From positions 1,726 through 65,725 of the forward strand of contig CALZIJ010000001.1 of assembly GCA_945787655.1 (NCBI GenBank): DNA of 64,000 nucleotides, read 5' to 3'. The notes below the pieces were generated by a model. It ran no database searches, was not told the DNA's origin, and worked only from the letters and a program-made list of their open reading frames with translations. Source of the stretch: Nitrospiria bacterium. Lineage in GTDB: Bacteria; Nitrospirota; Nitrospiria; SBBL01; JAADHI01. How positions within the stretch are numbered: the first letter of the stretch is position 1; every line of letters begins with the position of its first letter. The position numbers and the translations under genes are program-made. Below, in pieces: positions 3,863 to 53,167 of the stretch.

Positions 3863-4660
3863 TTATTCATGCCCTTCGTAGGCGTGCGGCGGCCGCCAAG
3901 GGAAGGCCCCCATGGCAACATCCATCATAACTCGCCAAGCGTTCAAATGCAGCCACTGGTCATACATGGCCCAGTCCTTGTATTTTGGAAGCTTCACGGA
4001 TGTTGGAACCTCAGTAAAAGAGGTCCCCTTTTTGAATTCCGCAAAGATGGCGGCTTCCAAATCGTTGATGTAGGCCAGAGTGTCGGTCACGTCTTTCTTG
4101 CTTCCCGTCGGCTTGCCGCTGGCATTATGAGAATAGACGGCCAGATCAAAATCCATTTTTTCGATCTGAGTTAACGAGCGTTTCCACTCCTTGAGATTAA
4201 AATCCGGAACGATTGCAAAAAGCAGACGTTTCGGAGCGACCAGGTCGGCCACATAGACGATCTTTTCCTTGGGCAGACGGAAGACCGTCATGCCCAGGCC
4301 ATGATTCATGCCCATGTAATGCAGCTCCAGGGTCGTGCCGCCGAGGTGGATGTCCTTACGCATGCCCGCCCAACTTTCATCCGGCAGCGCCAGATCATCA
4401 TGCGGGTTGTCCTTCATCCATTCGTAAGCCTCGACATGGGCCACAATCGTGGCACCGGCGTCCCGAAAAACCTGCCCTCCATTGGCGTGATCCCAATGAT
4501 TGTGGCTGATCAGCAGAAAACGAATCGGCTTGTCCGTCACGCCGCGAATCGCCTTGAGCATCCCTTTCGAATGCTTCGAGTTAACCGGCTCGATTGCGAT
4601 AACGCCATCTTCTGTCACAACAAACATGGAAAGATACATCCCCGCATCATACACATACAC
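3863..4660 (-). CDS. MBL-fold metallo-hydrolase; upstream in-frame signal peptide separated by a TAG (possible pseudogene or sequencing error)
   Basis: It has the HNHWDHANGG (HxHxDH) zinc motif. ATG 4762 through TAG 4708-4706 encodes MKKMIVVGVFLALVPFSA in the same frame. Confidence 0.8.
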   Translation of the reverse strand: MYVYDAGMYLSMFVVTEDGVIAIEPVNSKHSKGMLKAIRGVTDKPIRFLLISHNHWDHANGGQVFRDAGATIVAHVEAYEWMKDNPHDDLALPDESWAGMRKDIHLGGTTLELHYMGMNHGLGMTVFRLPKEKIVYVADLVAPKRLLFAIVPDFNLKEWKRSLTQIEKMDFDLAVYSHNASGKPTGSKKDVTDTLAYINDLEAAIFAEFKKGTSFTEVPTSVKLPKYKDWAMYDQWLHLNAWRVMMDVAMGAFPWRPPHAYEGHE

Positions 4661-7884: not shown

Positions 7885-8745
7885 GTGACCAAAGCAGACT
7901 TGCTCAGCAATAAAGCCGAAATTCTTATTGAGGCCCTGCCTTATATTCAGGCCTTTCATGGCAAGACCATCGTCATAAAGTACGGCGGGGCCGCGATGAT
8001 TGACCCGGCCCTTAAACGTCAGTTTGCCGAAGATGTGGTCCTGATGAAGTACGTGGGTATGCATCCCGTTATTGTGCACGGCGGCGGTCCCCAAATTTCC
8101 GGCATGATGAAACGGCTTGGCATGGAGCCGCAATTTGTTGAGGGCGTTCGGGTGACCGACCCTGAAACCATGTCCATTGTGGAAATGGTGCTGGCCGGGA
8201 CGATCAACAAGGAGATTATCACCCTCATCCACCAGATGGGCGGCAAAGGCGTCGGGCTGACCGGCAAAGACGGTCGGCTGATCAAAGCCAAGCGGCTCAG
8301 TGACGAAAAAGAATCCAAAAATCACGTCGGCGAAGTCGCTTCAGTAGATCCGGAAATTTTAAAAACGCTGGATGAAGGTCAGTTTATCCCGGTCATCTCT
8401 CCCATCGGGGCAGATGAAACCGGAAAAACCTACAATATCAATGCGGACTTGGTCGCAGGCAGTTTGGCTGCGGCACTTTCAGCTGAAAAGCTACTGGTAT
8501 TAACGGATGTCCCCGGTATTTTAGATCAAACCGGTAGCCTCATTCCCACCCTGTCCCAAAAAAAAGTCGAGCAGCTGATGAGTGACGGGGTCATCCACGG
8601 AGGCATGATGCCCAAGATCAAGGCCGCGCTTTCCGCCGTGGAAAACGGCGTTCACAAATCCCACATCATAGACGGCCGGGTTCCTCATGCCTTGCTTCTT
8701 GAAGTTTTTACTGATCAAGGGGTGGGGACAGAAATCGTGGCTTAA
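7885..8745 (+). CDS. argB: acetylglutamate kinase
   Basis: Motifs are [18 protein letters not shown] and INADLVAG. The start codon is GTG. Confidence 0.92.
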
Positions 8746-8760
8746 AACGGATAAGTTGAT

Positions 8761-9579
8761 TTACGGGGATTTGGCGCATCGAAATCCAAGATCAGAAAAA
8801 GCTTGCTCCGGCGCAATCGATGATCGGTAAGCACCCCGGTAAAACAGTGGCAGGACATAGTGGCCAACACGCCCGCCTCCCCCGCCTTTAAAAACCTTTT
8901 GCTTTTGCCCGAATAATTCTGTTTCAAAGGTGGCGTTGGGGTAAGGCCTGTACCAATCACTTGTCCATTCCCAGACATTTCCCGCCATATCCATGACACC
9001 GTAAGGACTCATACTTTCAATAAATGATCCCACCGGCGCAATCTCTCCGGCATTGGGATCATTCGCTGCATTCTTTTTAATTTTTTCAAAATCATCACCC
9101 CAGGGAAATTCCCGGCCATCCGGGCCGCGGGCCGCTTTTTCCCACTCGGCTTCCGTTGGCAGCCGTTTTTCGGCCCACTGACAGTAGCGATCGGCTTCAT
9201 ACCAATTAATATTGGAAACCGGGTAGTTTTCAGCCCCTGGCGGCACGGAACCATTTTTAAAATAGGGCGGGGGACGCCAGTCCGTTGCATCAATAAACAC
9301 CTTGTATTCCGCATTGGTCACTTCATACTGGTCAATATAAAAAAAAGGCAAGTTTATTTCATGTTGGGGATATTCATCCTTGTACCATGGCTTCTTGCTG
9401 CCCAGCTCCTTGGCCTGCTGAAATGCATCAATTTTATTACTGCCGCGAATAAAACGACCGGCGGGAACCGGCACCATGCCGCGGGGCGGAGAGACCGTCG
9501 AGGCCATGACTGAACCGTTGGACAGGGAAAGGGCAATCACGAGGAAATGAATGCACAAACCGGAAATGGGCAGTTGCAT
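8761..9579 (-). CDS. periplasmic formylglycine-generating-enzyme (FGE/SUMF1) domain protein, paralog 2
   Basis: A signal peptide is followed by MVPVPAGRFIRGS, YEVTNAEY, RLPTEAEWEKAARG, GNVWEWTSDWY and GFRC. Confidence 0.85.
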   Translation of the reverse strand: MQLPISGLCIHFLVIALSLSNGSVMASTVSPPRGMVPVPAGRFIRGSNKIDAFQQAKELGSKKPWYKDEYPQHEINLPFFYIDQYEVTNAEYKVFIDATDWRPPPYFKNGSVPPGAENYPVSNINWYEADRYCQWAEKRLPTEAEWEKAARGPDGREFPWGDDFEKIKKNAANDPNAGEIAPVGSFIESMSPYGVMDMAGNVWEWTSDWYRPYPNATFETELFGQKQKVFKGGGGGRVGHYVLPLFYRGAYRSSIAPEQAFSDLGFRCAKSP

Positions 9580-9726: not shown

Positions 9727-10545
9727 TCAAGGAGACTTTACGCAACGAAACCCCAAATCTGCATAAGCCTCTTCAGGCACCAGGGAAGAGCGATAAGCGG
9801 TCCGGTAAAAGAGAGGAAGAGAATAATGTCCGATACCGCCCCACCCGCCACCACGGAATACCTTTTGTTTTTCACCATACAGAACACTTTTGTAGGTTCC
9901 GTCCTCGTAGGGCTGATACCAGTCTGAAGTCCATTCCCAAACATTCCCGGACATGTCGTGTGCACCGTAAGGACTCACCCCACCCTCAAAAGAGCCGACC
10001 GGCGCGACATCTCCGATCCCCGAATCTCCGGCATTTAACTTCTTCTTGTCATAATCATTACCCCAGGGAAATTCCCGGCCGTCCGTCCCCCGAGCCGCTT
10101 TTTCCCATTCCGCTTCAGTCGGCAAACGTTTTCCCAGCCACTCACAGTATCGTGTCGCCTCATACCAGTTTATGTCGGTCACTGGATAGCCCTCCCGGCC
10201 GGGCGGCACACCTCGGCCAAAAAAATACACGGGAGGACGAGAGCGTGTATCGTCAATAAAAAGTTTGTATTCAGCGTTGGTCACCTCGTAACGGTCAATA
10301 TAAAACAAGGGCAGGTGGTGTTGATGCTTAGGATGTTCATCAAGATACCAGGGTTTCAGCGTGCCAAGTTCGTTTCCTTGCTGGTGCTCATCCACCTTGT
10401 CACTGCCACGAATAAACTTTCCGGCAGGCACTGCCACCATGCCCGGCGGCGGTGGCTCCAGGGGCATTTTCAATAGACAACTGGAAATCATGGCACCGAA
10501 AAAAAGGACCGCACTGGTAAAGCAGACTGTATGTTTTATTTTCAT
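9727..10545 (-). CDS. periplasmic formylglycine-generating-enzyme (FGE/SUMF1) domain protein, paralog 1
   Basis: It has the same 272-aa length and the same motifs as the neighbouring gene, and aligns to it without gaps. Confidence 0.85.
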   Translation of the reverse strand: MKIKHTVCFTSAVLFFGAMISSCLLKMPLEPPPPGMVAVPAGKFIRGSDKVDEHQQGNELGTLKPWYLDEHPKHQHHLPLFYIDRYEVTNAEYKLFIDDTRSRPPVYFFGRGVPPGREGYPVTDINWYEATRYCEWLGKRLPTEAEWEKAARGTDGREFPWGNDYDKKKLNAGDSGIGDVAPVGSFEGGVSPYGAHDMSGNVWEWTSDWYQPYEDGTYKSVLYGEKQKVFRGGGWGGIGHYSLPLFYRTAYRSSLVPEEAYADLGFRCVKSP

Positions 10546-32658: not shown

Positions 32659-34134
32659 ATGAATCGTCAAGACAGTCAGCCAAATCAGTTTTTTCTGGAA
32701 AAATATGGACTTTCAAACAACACACTCGAATCCACACTGGGCCGGGCGCTTGGAAAAAAGATCGACTACGCCGATCTTTTTTTTGAATACCAAACCAGTG
32801 AATTTTTAAGCCTGGAAGAAGGGATTGTCAAAAAACTGTCGAAAGACATCTCACAGGGCGTGGGCGTACGCGCCGTTGCCGAAGAAAAGACAGGATACGC
32901 CTACTCCGACGAAATTAACGTAGACCACCTGCTTTCGGCTGCACAAACCGCCCGCTATATTGCGGCTGAAGGCGGGGAGCGTCCTCCCGCGCCGATACAT
33001 ACGCCCTCTCCCCCCGCCTCGAACCTTTATCCCGTGGAAACGGCGCCGATCGACGTTCCCACCTCTGAAAAAATTAATCTTCTCCGTGAAATCGACCAGA
33101 TCGCACGAGCCTACGACCCCCGCATCAAAAAAGTCATGGCCTCTTTCAGCAGTGAGCAGCGGATCACACTGATCGTCACGTCCGATGGACTGGCTGTCGG
33201 CGATGTACAGCCCCTGATGCGTTTGAATGTGGCCTGCATCGCGGAAGAAGGCAGCAACCGACAGTCCGGCTCTTTTGGCGGCGGCGGCCGAAGCGAACTC
33301 GAATTTTTCTTTGAATCGCCGGATTTTGAATCGGGGGACAACAAAAAACGTTACGCACAATACGCGCACGAAGCCGCGCGACAGGCGATTTTAAATCTCT
33401 CCGCCGTAGATGCGCCCGCAGGCGCGACGGAAGTTGTCCTCGGGCCCGGCTGGCCCGGCATTTTGCTGCACGAGGCCATCGGTCATGGCCTGGAGGCCGA
33501 TTTTAACCGCAAAAAAACATCGGCCTTTACGGATAAACTGGGGCAGCGCGTCGCTTCCGATTTGTGCACCATTGTGGACGATGGCACCATTCCCAACCGA
33601 CGCGGTTCTTTAAATTGCGACGATGAAGGCACGCCCACAGGCCGTACCGTGCTCATCGAAAACGGGATTTTAAAAAATTATTTGCAGGACAAATTGAACG
33701 CCAAACTCATGGGCATGCCGCTCACCGGCAACGGTCGGCGCGAAAGTTACGCGCACAGCCCCATGCCGCGCATGACGAATACTTTCATGCTGGCAGGCGA
33801 TTCGACCCGCGATGAAATCCTCCGTTCAGTGAAAAAAGGGATTTACGCCGTGTCCTTCGGCGGCGGACAGGTGGATATCACTTCGGGCAAGTTCGTCTTT
33901 TCGGCCAGCGAAGCCTATCTCGTTGAAAACGGACAAATCGGCGCGCCGGTCAAGGGCGCGACCCTCATCGGCAACGGCCCGGACGTGCTCACGAAGGTCA
34001 CGATGGTGGGCAATGATCTGTCACTCGATTCCGGTATCGGCACCTGCGGGAAAGACGGGCAAAGTGTTCCTGTCGGCGTGGGCCTGCCCACCATTAAAAT
34101 CTCGGAAATGACCGTGGGCGGGACGAGTGGGTGA
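32659..34134 (+). CDS. tldD: metalloprotease TldD
   Basis: The HEAIGHGLEADF zinc motif is present, and the Gly-rich C-terminus is characteristic of the TldD/PmbA family. Confidence 0.92.
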   Translation: MNRQDSQPNQFFLEKYGLSNNTLESTLGRALGKKIDYADLFFEYQTSEFLSLEEGIVKKLSKDISQGVGVRAVAEEKTGYAYSDEINVDHLLSAAQTARYIAAEGGERPPAPIHTPSPPASNLYPVETAPIDVPTSEKINLLREIDQIARAYDPRIKKVMASFSSEQRITLIVTSDGLAVGDVQPLMRLNVACIAEEGSNRQSGSFGGGGRSELEFFFESPDFESGDNKKRYAQYAHEAARQAILNLSAVDAPAGATEVVLGPGWPGILLHEAIGHGLEADFNRKKTSAFTDKLGQRVASDLCTIVDDGTIPNRRGSLNCDDEGTPTGRTVLIENGILKNYLQDKLNAKLMGMPLTGNGRRESYAHSPMPRMTNTFMLAGDSTRDEILRSVKKGIYAVSFGGGQVDITSGKFVFSASEAYLVENGQIGAPVKGATLIGNGPDVLTKVTMVGNDLSLDSGIGTCGKDGQSVPVGVGLPTIKISEMTVGGTSG

Positions 34135-34167
34135 TGGGCGATATAGTCTAAATCCAAGGAAATTATA

Positions 34168-35103
34168 GTGGACAAAAAACATTTTGAACTATTATTACGT
34201 AATACCCCTTTCTCTAGAGCGCTTGTTGTCGAGTTATGGGATGGACTAAGCACTTTTGAGCACATCAACATCCTTATTCAGTTGAACTCTATTACAAAAG
34301 AATTATTTAAAAAGGCATTTAATGATGTGAATTCCGTTGTTCGGATGCTTGCTGTAAAAAGTTTTTACATAGATCAAAGTGAAGAACCTGAACTGTATGA
34401 AAAGATAAAGTCTGACATATCTCCATTTGTTCAAGCTGCTATTAAAGAAAAAAGTCTAGAATCGGATTTTAACAGATTGGGCTTTGAAGAAGAAATAGAA
34501 CAGTTGAGTCAACTTGAAAAACTTGGCGCAGTTGCTCTTTCTGATTCAATTATCGATGAGGAGTTTGCAGACTTCATTGTTAAAGGGATAGAGAATCAAA
34601 TAATATCGGAAGATGAGGCTTCAGAGCTGGTATTTGAGTTTGTTGGAAATCCTAATTGTAAATATGGACTAGAAATAAAGACTCGTGATGGTCTCTTGGC
34701 CTATTCAATACAAAAAGGTTTTGAAAAAATGTGGAATTTAACAACATGCACATCACACAAAGTTCATTACGCCATTGCATGGAGGTATCCCCTGACTACC
34801 GGAAATGGAGGCAAGATACCAAAAGAAATTTTGAACAAAATGGGCAATCAAGTTCTTGAAACTCTGGTATATCGTAACTATCAACCACTTCTGGATTTAA
34901 TAGAAAAGAATCCAAAAAATTTTGACGAAGAAATTCACAAAGCTATAGAAACCAATAGTGATTATTCTACATCTACAAGAATATGCGACCCTTTTAGAGG
35001 TAATGATATGGATCTACTCCGAGTAGAACTTCTTCGTGTAAAAGAAGAAATCAATGATCGTATCGATGCCTTGACTCAACAACTAAGGGATTCTGGTTCA
35101 TAA
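34168..35103 (+). CDS. orphan hypothetical protein (311 aa) in an AT-rich insert between tldD and pmbA
   Basis: The ORF is long, has a GTG start and an AAGGA RBS. It appears helical and acidic with a C-terminal coiled-coil-like segment. Composition contrasts sharply with both flanks. Confidence 0.6.
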   Translation: MDKKHFELLLRNTPFSRALVVELWDGLSTFEHINILIQLNSITKELFKKAFNDVNSVVRMLAVKSFYIDQSEEPELYEKIKSDISPFVQAAIKEKSLESDFNRLGFEEEIEQLSQLEKLGAVALSDSIIDEEFADFIVKGIENQIISEDEASELVFEFVGNPNCKYGLEIKTRDGLLAYSIQKGFEKMWNLTTCTSHKVHYAIAWRYPLTTGNGGKIPKEILNKMGNQVLETLVYRNYQPLLDLIEKNPKNFDEEIHKAIETNSDYSTSTRICDPFRGNDMDLLRVELLRVKEEINDRIDALTQQLRDSGS

Positions 35104-35224
35104 AGTCGTCATTCATCAATATGGAAAAAACAAGCATGACTTAGAAAACCATAGGCATGAATAGATTAAAACCAAATAAACAGAAATTAGAAGGACAACC
35201 CTTTATAAGTTTAAGGACAAACAC

Positions 35225-36571
35225 ATGCAATTTCAAATCGAACAAGCCAAAAATTTACTGAAATCCGCAAAGGAAAAGGGGGCAACGGAAGGCGACGTGC
35301 TGGTGGTCGAAGGGGACTCCTTTTCGACACAGGTACGTTTGGATGATGTTGAAAATATCAGCAGTGCACGCGGGAAGAGCCTGGGGCTTCGGCTCTTTTT
35401 CGGGAAGCGTTCGGCCATCACCTCCACGTCGGATCTCTCACCGGCCTCACTTGAACGACTGGTCGCGGATACCTGCACATTGGCAAAAATCGCTGAAGAA
35501 GATGAATTTTCAGGTCTGCCCGCGGCGGAAGCCTGCGCCAACACTTTTCCCGAACTGGACCTGGTGGATCACGAAATCGGCAAATTGTCCATCGATGAAA
35601 AAATCGCAATGGCCCGCGACACGGAACGCGCCGCACTTCAGGAAGACCCCCGTCTGAATAATTCCGAAGGTGCGGACTTCAGCCATTCTTACAATGAAGT
35701 CCTGTATGCGGCGAGCAATGGATTTTCCGGGACAAACCGGGGCTCCGGGATATCGCTCTCCGTCTCGCCGATCGCCTCGGAAAACGGCCATATGCAGCGG
35801 GATTACTGGTACAGCTCCAAACGCAAATTAGGCCAGTTGGCCTCTCCGGAATCGATCGGAAAAAAAGCCGCGCATCGCACCCTTCGTCGGCTGGGCGCGC
35901 AAAAAATAAAAACACAACAGGCCCCGGTGATTTTTGAAGCAGATATTGCCTCATCACTCCTGGGCCATTTGGCCTCTGCGCTTTCCGGCTATGCGCTGTA
36001 TAAAAAAGCTTCTTTTCTGACCGATCAACTGGACCAACGCATCGCTTCAGAAAACATCACGGTCTATGACGACCCCACACTGCCTTTTGGTTTCGGCTCA
36101 CGGCCTTTTGACGGCGAGGGTTTGCCCTCCTATCAAAAAATGATTGTTGAAAACGGGATTCTCAAAAGCTATTTACTCGATACCTATTCCGGGAAAAAGC
36201 TGGGGCTGCCATCCACAGGCAACGCTGTCCGGGAGACCGGGGGCGGACCCAGCGTCGGGGTGTCCAATTTCCATTTGATGCCGGGTACGGTGTCTCCAGA
36301 GGAAATCATCGCCTCCGTGCATTCCGGGCTGCTGGTGACTGAATTAATCGGGTTTGGTGTCAATCTGATCACGGGTGACTATTCGCGCGGCGCAGCAGGT
36401 ATCTGGATTGAAAATGGTGAATTGGCTTATCCGGTCGAGGAGTTGACCATTGCCGGCAACCTCAAGGAGATGTTTCAACAGATCGAACTCCTAGGCAATG
36501 ATGCCGATCTCAGCGATAAAATTGCCGCGCCCACCCTCAAAATTTCAAGCATGATGATTGCGGGAAATTAA
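35225..36571 (+). CDS. pmbA: metalloprotease PmbA (TldE)
   Basis: It shows the TldD/PmbA family pattern without an HExxH motif, and the C-terminus reads PTLKISSMMIAG. Confidence 0.9.
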   Translation: MQFQIEQAKNLLKSAKEKGATEGDVLVVEGDSFSTQVRLDDVENISSARGKSLGLRLFFGKRSAITSTSDLSPASLERLVADTCTLAKIAEEDEFSGLPAAEACANTFPELDLVDHEIGKLSIDEKIAMARDTERAALQEDPRLNNSEGADFSHSYNEVLYAASNGFSGTNRGSGISLSVSPIASENGHMQRDYWYSSKRKLGQLASPESIGKKAAHRTLRRLGAQKIKTQQAPVIFEADIASSLLGHLASALSGYALYKKASFLTDQLDQRIASENITVYDDPTLPFGFGSRPFDGEGLPSYQKMIVENGILKSYLLDTYSGKKLGLPSTGNAVRETGGGPSVGVSNFHLMPGTVSPEEIIASVHSGLLVTELIGFGVNLITGDYSRGAAGIWIENGELAYPVEELTIAGNLKEMFQQIELLGNDADLSDKIAAPTLKISSMMIAGN

Positions 36572-49952: not shown

Positions 49953-52115
49953 TCAGAGATTTATCATTTTTAATATTTTCGATATTTTTGCTTTAAGATT
50001 ATCGGGAATATCCTGTTTGAGCGCTGTTTCCAAATGTGGAAGGCCAAGGTGCATTTCCTCATTTTTTACATAAGCCATACCCAAGTGGTATTTATATAAC
50101 CCTTTGTCCGGGTTTTTATTGACAAGTGGGTCCAAAATTTCAATGGCTTGTTGATAATCTCCATTGAGATAATACCACCAGCCCAATGTATCATTGATTT
50201 GATCATTTTTAGGCGCCACGCTAATTGCCTGTCTGATATAGGAGTAGGCTGTGGTTTTATCTTCAAAGTGATTTAATAGTATCCAAGCCAAATTGTTGAG
50301 CAGCATGTCATCTTCGGGGAAATATGCCAGCCCTTTTTCATAGACTTTTCGGGCGTGAATATAATCTTTATTTTTTTCGTATAAAATACCCAAGGCCTGA
50401 TAAGATTTGATAAATTGAGGATGCATTTCAATCAGCCTGTTTAACAAGGTCATTGCCGAAGCGGCATCCCCTTTTTCAGACGCGATTTTGGCTTTCATAT
50501 AATGGGCCGCCGTATTGTTATGATTGAGAAGAATGGCCTTTTCAAGATGTTTATCCGCCAGGCCCAAAACACCCTCTTCTAAATAATATTGCCCCATTAA
50601 GGCGTGAGATAAAAACCCGGCCTGATGATCCAGATAGGGAGCAAGATGGTCATCAACCTGTCTTGGCTCCACCTTTTCTTGCTTTAAAAGTTCAAGTTCC
50701 AGGAAGAGCCGTTCGACATACCTTGGGTCTATTTCAGAGATCTGCTTTCTGGCCTCTGATAGCTGTTTGTTATTTATTGCGGTCAGGGCATTGAAATAAA
50801 AATAGAGATTATTCCGGCTATCCAGTTTTTGAAGCACTTCAAATTCATACCGGGCTTCTTCCAGCCGGCTTTGCAAATAAAGGGCAACGCCGTTCATGGC
50901 GTGTCCACTCCTGTTGTCGGGCTCAATCTGCAGGACCAGTTTGGCATGATCCGCCGCCAGGTCATATTGATTGGACAACAGATAAAGCCCCGCCAATAAT
51001 AGGTGGGCCTGAATATAACCCGGATTGTTTTGTATGGCCTTTTTTAAAAACTGTTTTGACAGCCTCGGTTTGTTTTGGAGCAAGTGCGTCAAACCCAGAT
51101 AATAATTGATTTCGTATGAGGACGGACTGACCACGAGTGCCTTGTTAAAACTGGACAGTGCACTGTCCACGTCCCCGGCCCGCAAATGATATTCTCCCAG
51201 CAACATCGCACCATAATAACGCTCGTTTTTTTTATCCTCATCGAGACCGGCCTGATTCAATTTTTCAATCAGGCGGGAAGCCGCCAGGTTTTTCCCCAAA
51301 TCCAGGTTCGTTTTAATGGCTCTAATGATTAGCGCCAGGGAATCCGGATGATGTTTTAAGGCATTCAAATAAATTTCATTGGCCCCGGAAAGGTTGTTTC
51401 GCTTGATGTATACCGTGCTGAGGGCCATGGATAAATTGATATCATCGGGATACGTTTTTAGTTTGCCCTCCAAATGAATCTCTGCCTCCCGGCTGCGGTC
51501 TGTCGACAAATAAAAATTCGCCAGTGCAATATCTGCAACAGTCCCTTCTTTAGACCGCCTTACGGCTTCTAAATAATATTCCTCCGCTTTTTTAAAATCC
51601 CTTTGTTTCAAAAAACTGTTGGCGAGTCCGACATAGCCTTTAATAAAATTTTCATCCTGTTTCAGAGCGGCCCGATAATATTTTTCAGCGTCGTCAAACA
51701 ACTCCTTTTTTAAATTAATATTTCCCCTCAAAAGCGCCGTTTCCGGTGATTGCCCAAACGCAGATTCCATTTTGTCAACAAGCTTTTCTACCCTGCCCGT
51801 CTCACCCAGTAATAGATACAAATAAGCAATCTCTATTTTTGTGGACAGGGGTTGGGGGCTCACTTTTTTGTAAGCCTTTAAAGCCCTCCTCAAATCCCCC
51901 AACTTAAGATAGGACAAGCCCTTAATTGTATAATATTCCGATGTTTTCAACTGGTTATCGTGGATGTCATTTAACAAGACAAGGGCCTGTGTATATTGGT
52001 TATCATCCAATGCTTGGCGTGCCCGGACGAGAGGCCCCATACTCCCCTCATGATTCGCCCTTGAGCAAGAGAGTAAGAAACTCAATAAAAGAATAGATAC
52101 GCCTAGCGTTTTCAC
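49953..52115 (-). CDS. TPR-repeat lipoprotein (720 aa)
   Basis: The lipobox is LLSC. At least 15 TPR-like repeats span the whole length, with the recurring pattern A...Y..AL...P....A...LG..Y. Confidence 0.7.
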   Translation of the reverse strand: MKTLGVSILLLSFLLSCSRANHEGSMGPLVRARQALDDNQYTQALVLLNDIHDNQLKTSEYYTIKGLSYLKLGDLRRALKAYKKVSPQPLSTKIEIAYLYLLLGETGRVEKLVDKMESAFGQSPETALLRGNINLKKELFDDAEKYYRAALKQDENFIKGYVGLANSFLKQRDFKKAEEYYLEAVRRSKEGTVADIALANFYLSTDRSREAEIHLEGKLKTYPDDINLSMALSTVYIKRNNLSGANEIYLNALKHHPDSLALIIRAIKTNLDLGKNLAASRLIEKLNQAGLDEDKKNERYYGAMLLGEYHLRAGDVDSALSSFNKALVVSPSSYEINYYLGLTHLLQNKPRLSKQFLKKAIQNNPGYIQAHLLLAGLYLLSNQYDLAADHAKLVLQIEPDNRSGHAMNGVALYLQSRLEEARYEFEVLQKLDSRNNLYFYFNALTAINNKQLSEARKQISEIDPRYVERLFLELELLKQEKVEPRQVDDHLAPYLDHQAGFLSHALMGQYYLEEGVLGLADKHLEKAILLNHNNTAAHYMKAKIASEKGDAASAMTLLNRLIEMHPQFIKSYQALGILYEKNKDYIHARKVYEKGLAYFPEDDMLLNNLAWILLNHFEDKTTAYSYIRQAISVAPKNDQINDTLGWWYYLNGDYQQAIEILDPLVNKNPDKGLYKYHLGMAYVKNEEMHLGLPHLETALKQDIPDNLKAKISKILKMINL

Positions 52116-52120
52116 GCGGA

Positions 52121-53167
52121 TTACACCCTTAAAAAAACCAGAAAAAATACCTTTGCCAGCATTTTTAAAAATAACAACAACAGCGTCAGTACAATAATTG
52201 AAATAATTTTGTTATTTAAAAAATACGCATATAATTTGGCGATACTTTTAAATAAACCATCAATCCAGGTGGACTCTTTTTTCGCCCCGGCACTTAATAT
52301 GATCGAACGTGTATTTAATGTGAATGTTTTTGCACTTTCAGAATTAACCTGTTCCCGTGATATTTTTTGTTGCGGCAGCACGTGTTCCTTTAATCGCCTT
52401 GATGCGGATGAAGCCTGCGCCATACGGCTCGCTTGTTTCTTCTCTCTAAAATCGCGCCTTGCTTTCGTTTCCCGGACGCCCCTTCCTCGACTGCCGGATT
52501 TTTCCCTGGAATCATACGAATAGGTAAAGTAATTATTTTGATCGATGGTCACGGTATGGTTGGGATTAAACAGGTCGGGCCTCTTTTTTGACATTTGAAG
52601 ATATCTTTGATTGACCGCCTCCAGTTCTTTTAAAATGGCAAAAATCCGGGTTTCCTGCTGTATCACTTCAAAATCTTTATTAAAAAAATTCTCCATCTGT
52701 CCCCACAGGGTAAAATCAAAATATTCACTGCGGATATCTTCTTTCATGACCGGATAACTCTTTATCTCAGTAAGTGCTATCATATCCAGATAAGGCTTTT
52801 CGGTGATATTAAAAATGATATTTTCTTTTTTTGAATTGAGGACTGAAAGGGAGCTAAAAATATGGATCTGTCCATCCGTCACTTTCGTATCACGCTTTAC
52901 ATAATCAATAAAATCCTGCTCATCAATGGAAGGAAAAACATGATTGCTTTCTGAAAAAACAAGGGAGGGAGGAGATAACGCCGTCAAAATCAGGCAAGAG
53001 AAGACACCGATCCAAAACAGGCGCATTCGGGTTTTTAAAAAATCCCTGGCTGGCTCGAAAAACCCCATGCTTCTTAAAAAAAAGGCAACGGCAAGAACAG
53101 TAACCTTCAAAAAAACAAACCTCATACGGTATATTATACAAGAACTGAACATAAAAAAAAGTTTCAT
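52121..53167 (-). CDS. hypothetical membrane-anchored protein (AT-rich gene)
   Basis: It has N-terminal hydrophobic segments, a basic Arg/Lys/Ser-rich middle and a C-terminal TM anchor. The start is uncertain (an alternative is the MRLFWIG ATG near 53026). Confidence 0.45.
   Translation of the reverse strand: MKLFFMFSSCIIYRMRFVFLKVTVLAVAFFLRSMGFFEPARDFLKTRMRLFWIGVFSCLILTALSPPSLVFSESNHVFPSIDEQDFIDYVKRDTKVTDGQIHIFSSLSVLNSKKENIIFNITEKPYLDMIALTEIKSYPVMKEDIRSEYFDFTLWGQMENFFNKDFEVIQQETRIFAILKELEAVNQRYLQMSKKRPDLFNPNHTVTIDQNNYFTYSYDSREKSGSRGRGVRETKARRDFREKKQASRMAQASSASRRLKEHVLPQQKISREQVNSESAKTFTLNTRSIILSAGAKKESTWIDGLFKSIAKLYAYFLNNKIISIIVLTLLLLFLKMLAKVFFLVFLRV

Follow-up and report, generated by a model that had tools for sequence, protein, structure and literature searches.

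An AT-rich gene between tldD and pmbA in an uncultured Nitrospiria bacterium belongs to a family that circulates as integron cassettes

In a stretch of 64,000 nucleotides from a Nitrospiria bacterium (contig CALZIJ010000001.1; called the window below), the co-oriented genes tldD and pmbA (tldE), which encode the two subunits of a metalloprotease, are separated by an AT-rich segment carrying a gene for a protein of 311 amino acids (aa). How did this gene come to lie inside a housekeeping transcription unit, and does it have anything to do with the protease? We propose that it is a stranded, cassette-derived single-gene insert which is probably read through together with its neighbours and sits in the operon as a passenger, not as a TldD/E component. 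We put the probability of this reading at about 0.6. It draws on the finding that relatives of the gene, and of an unrelated cargo in the same spacer of a sister genome, are integron cassettes, a connection that is absent from the preliminary description of the locus.

The comparison with relatives, whose loci were taken from a scan of one genome per species, shows that the segment is an insertion. The same scan places the host among the Nitrospirota, close to Candidatus Manganitrophaceae. In the closest relative (L009, OFTM211; TldD 91% and PmbA 86% identical in amino acid sequence) the gap between the two genes is 78 bp with a GC content of 0.36, and the gene order around it is conserved (a tetratricopeptide repeat (TPR) gene, a thioesterase gene, tldD, pmbA, an M23 peptidase gene and metG). 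Six further clade members, with PmbA 71–73% identical (L010, L011, L012, L079, L080 and L081), have gaps of 45–182 bp. Because all seven have such short gaps, the 1,090 bp found here (34135-35224) must have been added, and the empty spacer is, judging from the more distant clade members, the ancestral state. On the right side the similarity between the window and L009 restarts 12 nt ahead of the pmbA ATG, at 35213 (AAGGACAAAC; blastn, 92% over 39 nt), and the boundary of the insert falls within a few nucleotides of GTT (..ATAAGTTT|AAGGAC). On the left side the exact insertion point is not fixed by the alignment with L009, L013 and L010; the GCGATAT that follows the tldD stop is also present in L013 and is probably native sequence. 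The junction is not chimeric, since a second assembly contig (GCA_945786955.1, L004), which agrees with the window from 33860 onward except for 2 mismatches over 9,244 bp, carries the identical junction. Flanking direct or inverted repeats and a target-site duplication were not found at the insert apart from short chance matches. There are no terminators or tRNA genes at the insertion site, with the terminator scan covering both sides, and no mobility gene was seen near the insert, where the neighbours are all housekeeping genes.

The segment also differs strongly from its host in composition. Its GC content is 0.346, while the window as a whole has 0.475, tldD 0.552 and pmbA 0.526, and no other 1,090-bp window of the 64 kb lies lower (mean 0.475, standard deviation 0.031; about 4 standard deviations below the mean). 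It is also the strongest tetranucleotide outlier (z 5.6). The GC content at third codon positions (GC3) of the inserted open reading frame (ORF) is 0.266, against 0.515 ± 0.049 in 31 other long ORFs (z −5.1). It should be noted here that the contrast at the locus is heightened because tldD and pmbA are unusually GC-rich for the window: among 32 long ORFs tldD (GC3 0.622) ranks first in GC, and pmbA (GC3 0.579) is third, right behind the ORF at 3863-4660. Windows of 1 kb within tldD are tetranucleotide outliers too (z 3.6–4.2). The region of the window that comes second in AT content lies elsewhere, at 52121-53167 together with 49953-52115. The former is a 348-aa ORF with hydrophobic stretches at its N- and C-terminus, whose GC (0.379) and GC3 (0.407) are the lowest apart from those of the inserted gene, and the latter encodes a repeat-rich protein of 720 aa (GC 0.426) which we take, by eye only, to be TPR-like. 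The region 49953-53167 may be another foreign or fast-evolving one.

The horizontal acquisition into the operon that the preliminary description had proposed is thus borne out by the deviant composition, by the empty sites in L009 and the six other clade members, and by the scattered contexts and hosts of the homologues described below. Its reading of the locus was accurate in detail as well, from the coordinates and orientation of tldD and pmbA and the 311-aa ORF with its VRMLAVKS and LLRVELLRVKEEINDRIDALTQQL segments to the sample counts (16 G+C in 34261-34320 and 37 in 33961-34020) and the lack of flanking direct repeats and mobility genes. The GC, GC3 and tetranucleotide scans all mark the segment as an extreme outlier, and no relative has a compositionally native orthologue at this position.

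A sister genome has received a different cargo at the same place. The metagenome-assembled genome (MAG) OFTM336 (L013; TldD 85% and PmbA 80% identical) carries a 1,365-bp insert between tldD and pmbA (L013:4636-6000; GC 0.36, range 0.33–0.38) with ORFs of 44 aa (truncated), 154 aa (a transmembrane protein with a weak 2TM match) and 228 aa. The 44-aa ORF is presumably the truncated N-terminus of a BrnA-type antitoxin, a resemblance noticed by eye only and with no Pfam hit. This cargo is unrelated to the window protein (the hhalign probability for the 228-aa product is 0.4%). Given that L013 is more distant from the window than L009, the spacer was either hit twice, or occupied, purged and re-filled. 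In other phyla the tldD-pmbA gap is sometimes filled too (L019:5122-5822; L035, L050 and L141), there with DNA of native GC content. In L019, an Acidobacteriaceae MAG, the spacer ORFs lie on the opposite strand and presumably form a PIN/AbrB-type toxin-antitoxin pair, as far as the look of the sequence goes, and some gammaproteobacterial loci have on the opposite strand an ORF that resembles yjgA.

The relatives of these two cargos carry the argument. L001 encodes an integron integrase (TIGR02249, E 5e-150; 499 bits, cutoff 265) that is divergent from a plus-strand array, in which a DUF6680 gene is the first cassette and a member of our family, which shares 67% identity with the window protein across residues 1-194, is the second, followed by SnoaL and RHH-ParE genes. 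Between the first and second cassettes lies a canonical attC site of 60 nt (7928-7987, AGCTAAC...GTTAGGC) which folds into a bulged hairpin (−19 kcal/mol, z −4.3), and 13 nt separate the end of its R' core from the ATG of the family member (19 nt from the G|TT crossover). More attC-like sites are found at 9349-9479 and at 9843-9905 (z −3.7). At L166 a 45%-identical member lies between two attC sites of one sequence family, one at 1314-1422 (−45 kcal/mol, z −10.7, ending in GTTAGGC) and the other at 2531-2630 (z −4.0, ending in GTTAGCC), with a third attC at 252-317. At L005 attC-like flanks surround the family member in an array of small ORFs, all on the plus strand, with a weakly RelA_SpoT-like gene downstream. 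As to the other cargo, P0168, which is 54% identical to the 228-aa product of L013, is encoded in an attC array at L163; immediately upstream of its gene is an attC (z −6.95). This array is made up of same-strand small ORFs without Pfam matches, ParE and duplicated cassettes, with ATCTAAC/GTTAG cores. From L001, L166 and L163 it follows that both spacer cargos, unrelated to each other, belong to families circulating as integron cassettes.

Some further features of these arrays were observed. The family copy of L001 is a pseudogene, split by about 590 bp (8517-9103). The interruption contains two direct repeats of about 70 nt, at ~8545-8620 and 8950-9025 (...CTGGAATCTGC..GCTAGACGTGATGGACTATGAGAAGCGC..GGGGAC.GTATCGAATAAG...), and could have arisen by duplication or be a small mobile element. 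The RelA_SpoT-like gene of L005 (L005:2340-2966, 208 aa) is below threshold for that family (E 4e-5; 24.3 bits, cutoff 27) and is preceded by an 82-aa ORF; the two may form a small alarmone-synthetase toxin-antitoxin cassette. In L163:2156-9781 near-identical duplicates occur (92-aa ORFs three times, 205-aa ORFs twice) along with repeats of 272–300 nt at 96–100% identity, and weakly SIR2-like genes are present beside ParE; the array resembles large sedentary chromosomal integrons.

Most likely, then, an integron cassette entered the AT-rich tldD-pmbA spacer of about 80 bp, outside any integron. It may have been inserted there at a genomic site by an integrase, or a later recombination may have brought it in. 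Its attC site would afterwards have decayed beyond recognition, and the gene would now be read through from the tldD promoter. The steps of this route have precedents. Integrases insert cassettes at genomic attG sites with a minimal G-W-T core, the inserted cassettes are expressed near host promoters, and isolated cassettes (single attC sites lacking an integron integrase, SALINs), numbering in the thousands, occur in 2,469 genomes (Loot et al., bioRxiv 10.1101/2022.09.11.507474). Integration at secondary sites likewise yields integrase-less cassettes (clusters of attC sites without any integron integrase, CALINs; Cury et al. 2016, PMC4889954). The inserted gene is arranged like a cassette: one promoterless ORF, preceded by a short leader and pointing the same way as the promoter that would express it. 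It lies on the strand of tldD and pmbA, has its own AAGGA Shine-Dalgarno sequence and leaves pmbA with its own ribosome-binding site; no promoter-like site was found on the + strand upstream of it. With a Shine-Dalgarno sequence of its own and neither promoter nor terminator, it is probably translated from read-through tldD-pmbA transcripts.

A number of observations at the locus and elsewhere weigh against this reading. In the 121 nt after the stop codon there is no AAC...GTT hairpin with paired ends (35090-35235 was covered), by a home-made scanner which recovers true attC sites and also gives many false positives in coding DNA, and which was used solely as a local negative test. Bottom-strand folds 3' of the ORF reach z −0.7 and −1.2, whereas the attC sites in L001, L163 and L166 lie between −4 and −11, and the RNA fold of the 3' non-coding remainder has z −1.4. 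A candidate attC picked by eye at 35164-35220 (TTAAAAC...GTTTAAG) was rejected, as its fold has −2.2 kcal/mol with unpaired ends and its apparent alignment with the L001 R'' box does not exceed that of shuffled sequences. The non-coding flanks of the window copy, including the leader, are no more similar to those of the L001 cassette than shuffled sequence is (z 0.1–1.2), a G|TT-type junction on the left side is not demonstrable, and tblastn with the L001 IntI found no integron integrase in the 64-kb window. A recognisable attC was also not found at six of the loci with homologues (L002, L007, L159, L161, L162 and pOLGA3), so that the family moves or persists by other means too. The insert of L013 is likewise without a detectable attC. 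Lacking an attC beside its coding sequence (CDS), the window copy is by definition not a SALIN and at most an ex-cassette.

These negatives leave room for entry without an integron, by illegitimate recombination, as the remainder of a decayed larger islet such as a toxin-antitoxin locus, or by homologous exchange through the tldD and pmbA flanks with DNA of a relative in which the insert was already present. We consider this clearly less likely than a stranded cassette, though the most serious of the alternatives. Apart from the lack of attC, intI and target duplication in the window, it draws on the BrnA-like truncated ORF at the left end of the L013 insert and on L002, where a full BrnA gene adjoins the family member, followed by a 144-aa ORF, the whole set between housekeeping SLT and yceD-rpmF-plsX genes; such BrnA-type ORFs point to decayed toxin-antitoxin islets. 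The presumed PIN/AbrB-like pair in the spacer of L019, judged from the look of the sequence, would fit as well, and several family members live in non-integron contexts. The family member has an 84-aa ORF upstream at L007, an NmeDI-type endonuclease and KptA beside it at L159, ParB_N and RcgA at L161, and a deaminase upstream at L162, and on the Paraburkholderia plasmid pOLGA3 a 27%-identical homologue, the one plasmid match, is next to a tyrosine recombinase and a DUF6650 gene. On the other hand, toxin-antitoxin genes are common cassettes, and ParE cassettes are present in both L001 and L163. More important, the relatives of both independent spacer cargos are integron cassettes, which under any other route would be a coincidence. 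A partner gene that might travel with the family was considered too: the family member is preceded by DUF6680 in L001 and, at the same spacing of 16 bp, by a 186-aa ORF with no Pfam match on record on the contig of P0014. A conserved partnership was rejected because the other neighbourhoods differ, and the transmembrane protein of L013 is not DUF6680.

Even if the gene came from a cassette, it could by now be a decaying, functionless hitch-hiker that is still open but no longer under selection. The C-terminus is where this alternative finds its support. Among the short forms of the family (280–370 aa) 30 of 54 end in a basic-Gly-aromatic tail ([KR]2-3-G-[LFI]-[FW], e.g. RKRGLFG). The window protein ends early, in ...QQLRDSGS, and the +2 frame reads on as KGFWFIKSSFINMEKTSMT, which parallels both GRFRLIKSEFQSWQKNKGR of the L001 copy and the family tail [KR][KR][KR]G[LF][FW], so that the tail was removed by a frameshift, which P0002 and P0027 share. 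The attC has gone as well, and the L001 copy, a member of the same subfamily, is disrupted. Yet the chance of 311 stop-free codons at the AT-rich composition of the segment is only about 1e-11, and the protein aligns with its homologues over the full length, their N-termini likewise reading MDKKHFELLLR; the ORF is therefore genuine. All 26 family-invariant residues are kept. The tail-less ending ...QQLRD..S is common to P0001, P0002 and P0027 at 67–74% identity, which means that the truncated form is old and was kept through substantial divergence. From this pattern the tail-less form is probably still functional, and we consider mere hitch-hiking unlikely.

The basic-aromatic tail resembles short amphipathic membrane-targeting sequences. 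The long forms of the family (at least 440 aa) have an additional region of about 250 aa without Pfam match, and 47 of 62 have a C-terminal hydrophobic segment while none of the 62 has the tail. By analogy both endings would be membrane-attachment devices, and that they are mutually exclusive suggests that membrane association is ancestral in the family. The window protein, with its membrane-targeting tail frameshifted away, is probably soluble. There are 14 close homologues, all unnamed; an exhaustive search returned 152 representatives at E <= 1e-3, and the family comprises at least 152 clusters at 50% identity; a wider profile search brought 2 new proteins among the matches listed. The family has no curated Pfam or NCBIfam model, and no homologues were found in 50,697 phage records or in IMG/VR. 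The close homologues are AT-rich relative to their hosts (0.35–0.39 against 0.42–0.45), whereas distant ones have host-like GC.

What the protein does has to be approached from its fold. It had been described as acidic and helical with a coiled C-terminus, and this agrees with a calculated isoelectric point of 4.89 and with an AlphaFold2 (AF2) model built with the 14 homologues (mean predicted local distance difference test score, pLDDT, 78.5), which is all-alpha. It shows 20 helices, with residues 265-283 disordered and a long C-terminal helix at 280-310. Foldseek returned only generic solenoids, of the ARM/HEAT/importin, alphaRep and "leucine-rich repeat variant" kinds (E >0.07, template modelling (TM) score ~0.2). 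Two D-x-[NS]-[SP]-x-V-[RQ]-x-x-A repeats of the HEAT/leucine-rich repeat variant (LRV) type are present at about residues 53-66 and 83-95. The suggestion that the VRMLAVKS segment is HEAT-like is supported at the level of the family, in which HEAT_2 matches 8 and HEAT 4 of 38 members (best E ~1e-3) and whose profile matches alphaRep HEAT-like proteins (E 9e-4) at profile positions 55-101, the span holding VRMLAVKS. The window protein itself has no HEAT match at E <= 1. Searches of the window protein against Pfam, NCBIfam, PADLOC and PHROGs gave no significant match; in PADLOC-DB 2.0 there was none at E <= 10, with scattered single-member matches among 38 relatives, and the best match of the close-family profile in a PDB sequence search had E 0.05. 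Most of the family-invariant residues are W, L, R, D, F or P, and no catalytic-looking constellation is conserved across the family. Such features suggest a binding or scaffold protein, and the gene product is best taken for a protein-binding accessory factor of the sort that integrons accumulate. A role in defence or immunity is also possible by analogy, and is a reasonable guess because many chromosomal-integron cassettes encode defence systems (bioRxiv 10.1101/2024.07.02.601686).

Could this accessory factor belong to the protease between whose subunits it is encoded? The preliminary description had raised this possibility, in the form of a substrate, modulator or immunity-like protein associated with TldD/E. 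The position between the two subunit genes, on the same strand and with probable co-transcription, invites it, a helical repeat protein could well bind a partner, and the best match in the family libraries is an immunity protein, Imm49 (PF15575; E 0.088 over 44 residues). That match reaches 12.8 bits against a gathering cutoff of 30.1 and is seen in just one of 38 family members. Neither tldD nor pmbA occurs in any of the 12 homologue neighbourhoods examined, the gene is missing from the closest relative, the sister genome L013 has unrelated genes in the same spacer, and the known TldD/E heterodimer works without a third partner (PMC5810440). The hypothesis is therefore considered very improbable. 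The weakest alternative, a native gene inherited vertically and lost in relatives, could appeal to the fact that two of the three closest genomes have cargo in the spacer, but these inserts are unrelated to each other, the gene has a GC3 5 standard deviations below host genes and relatives in unrelated hosts including the Paraburkholderia plasmid, and the idea is already refuted in practice by the composition and by the empty sites in L009 and the six other clade members.

Table 1. Features of the tldD-pmbA region in the window
Feature	Coordinates	Strand	Remarks
tldD	32659-34134	+	Intact native upstream flank; PmbA_TldD_1st/2nd/3rd, E 1e-12 to 3e-70; HEAIGH motif (HExxxH) in the product
Left junction and 5' leader of inserted gene	34135-34167	+	Just 33 nt between the tldD stop and the GTG; AAGGA Shine-Dalgarno about 8 nt before the GTG
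Inserted gene	34168-35103	+	311 aa, GTG start; sole long ORF of the tldD-pmbA gap
Out-of-frame C-terminal tail remnant	35085-35144	+	Frame translations compared with the C-termini of the family
3' non-coding remainder of insert	35104-35212	+	Where a cassette attC would lie
pmbA ribosome-binding region, native	35213-35224	+	AAGGACAAACAC; right boundary of insert
pmbA (tldE)	35225-36571	+	Intact native downstream flank; PmbA_TldD_1st/2nd/3rd, E 2e-10 to 2e-80

The locus can be compared with several known systems (features in Table 1). Like a SALIN it has a promoterless ORF of a cassette-borne family away from any integrase and inside a host transcription unit; SALINs are, however, defined by a CDS together with an attC, and the window copy has neither a detectable attC nor demonstrable G|WT crossovers. 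A product of 311 aa also looks long for a cassette. Among HEAT, PBS-lyase HEAT-like and LRV proteins it would fit by its two repeats, its all-helical solenoid model and the weak family-level profile matches, but only about 45 of the 311 residues are repeat-like, and neither the coiled C-terminal helix nor the family's membrane tail or anchor is a HEAT feature. The flanking genes, adjacent and co-oriented, are those of the canonical TldD/TldE (PmbA) heterodimeric metalloprotease (PMC5810440), whereas the inserted protein shares nothing with either subunit and its homologues are unlinked to both. Sedentary chromosomal integrons consist of arrays that hold mostly ORFs of unknown function as well as toxin-antitoxin modules and defence genes (bioRxiv 10.1101/2024.07.02.601686). 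Relatives of the gene lie in such arrays (L001, and L166 with its homogeneous attC sites), and, like many of their cassettes, it is uncharacterised and AT-rich as compared to its host; the window copy differs in lying outside an array, and its product has no PADLOC defence match.

What is new here is modest: a cassette gene stranded in a genome is a known kind, and the novelty lies in the cassette ancestry of this one and in the recurrent use of the spacer. A gene from the cassette pool appears to have been fixed within a housekeeping transcription unit of an uncultured member of the Nitrospirota, away from any integron. Together with the cargo of L013 it would provide natural evidence for the proposed spread of cassettes into non-att sites, followed by attC decay and, in this case, tail loss. 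We would go further only tentatively, as it seems rather doubtful that the spacer is a recurrently used attG-type hotspot, an integrase-less mini-platform at which cassettes become fixed by the loss of attC and are served by a housekeeping promoter. If this were true, the tldD-pmbA hotspot would be a natural counterpart of the laboratory attG hotspots, and the alpha-solenoid family with its tail or transmembrane anchor would be a new cassette-borne class, for example of membrane-associated defence or immunity factors. For the biology of the protease, a tempting but unsupported link to TldD/E has been removed. For the family, the analysis delineates a widespread group of proteins without a curated model, which is a candidate for functional screens of cassette genes.

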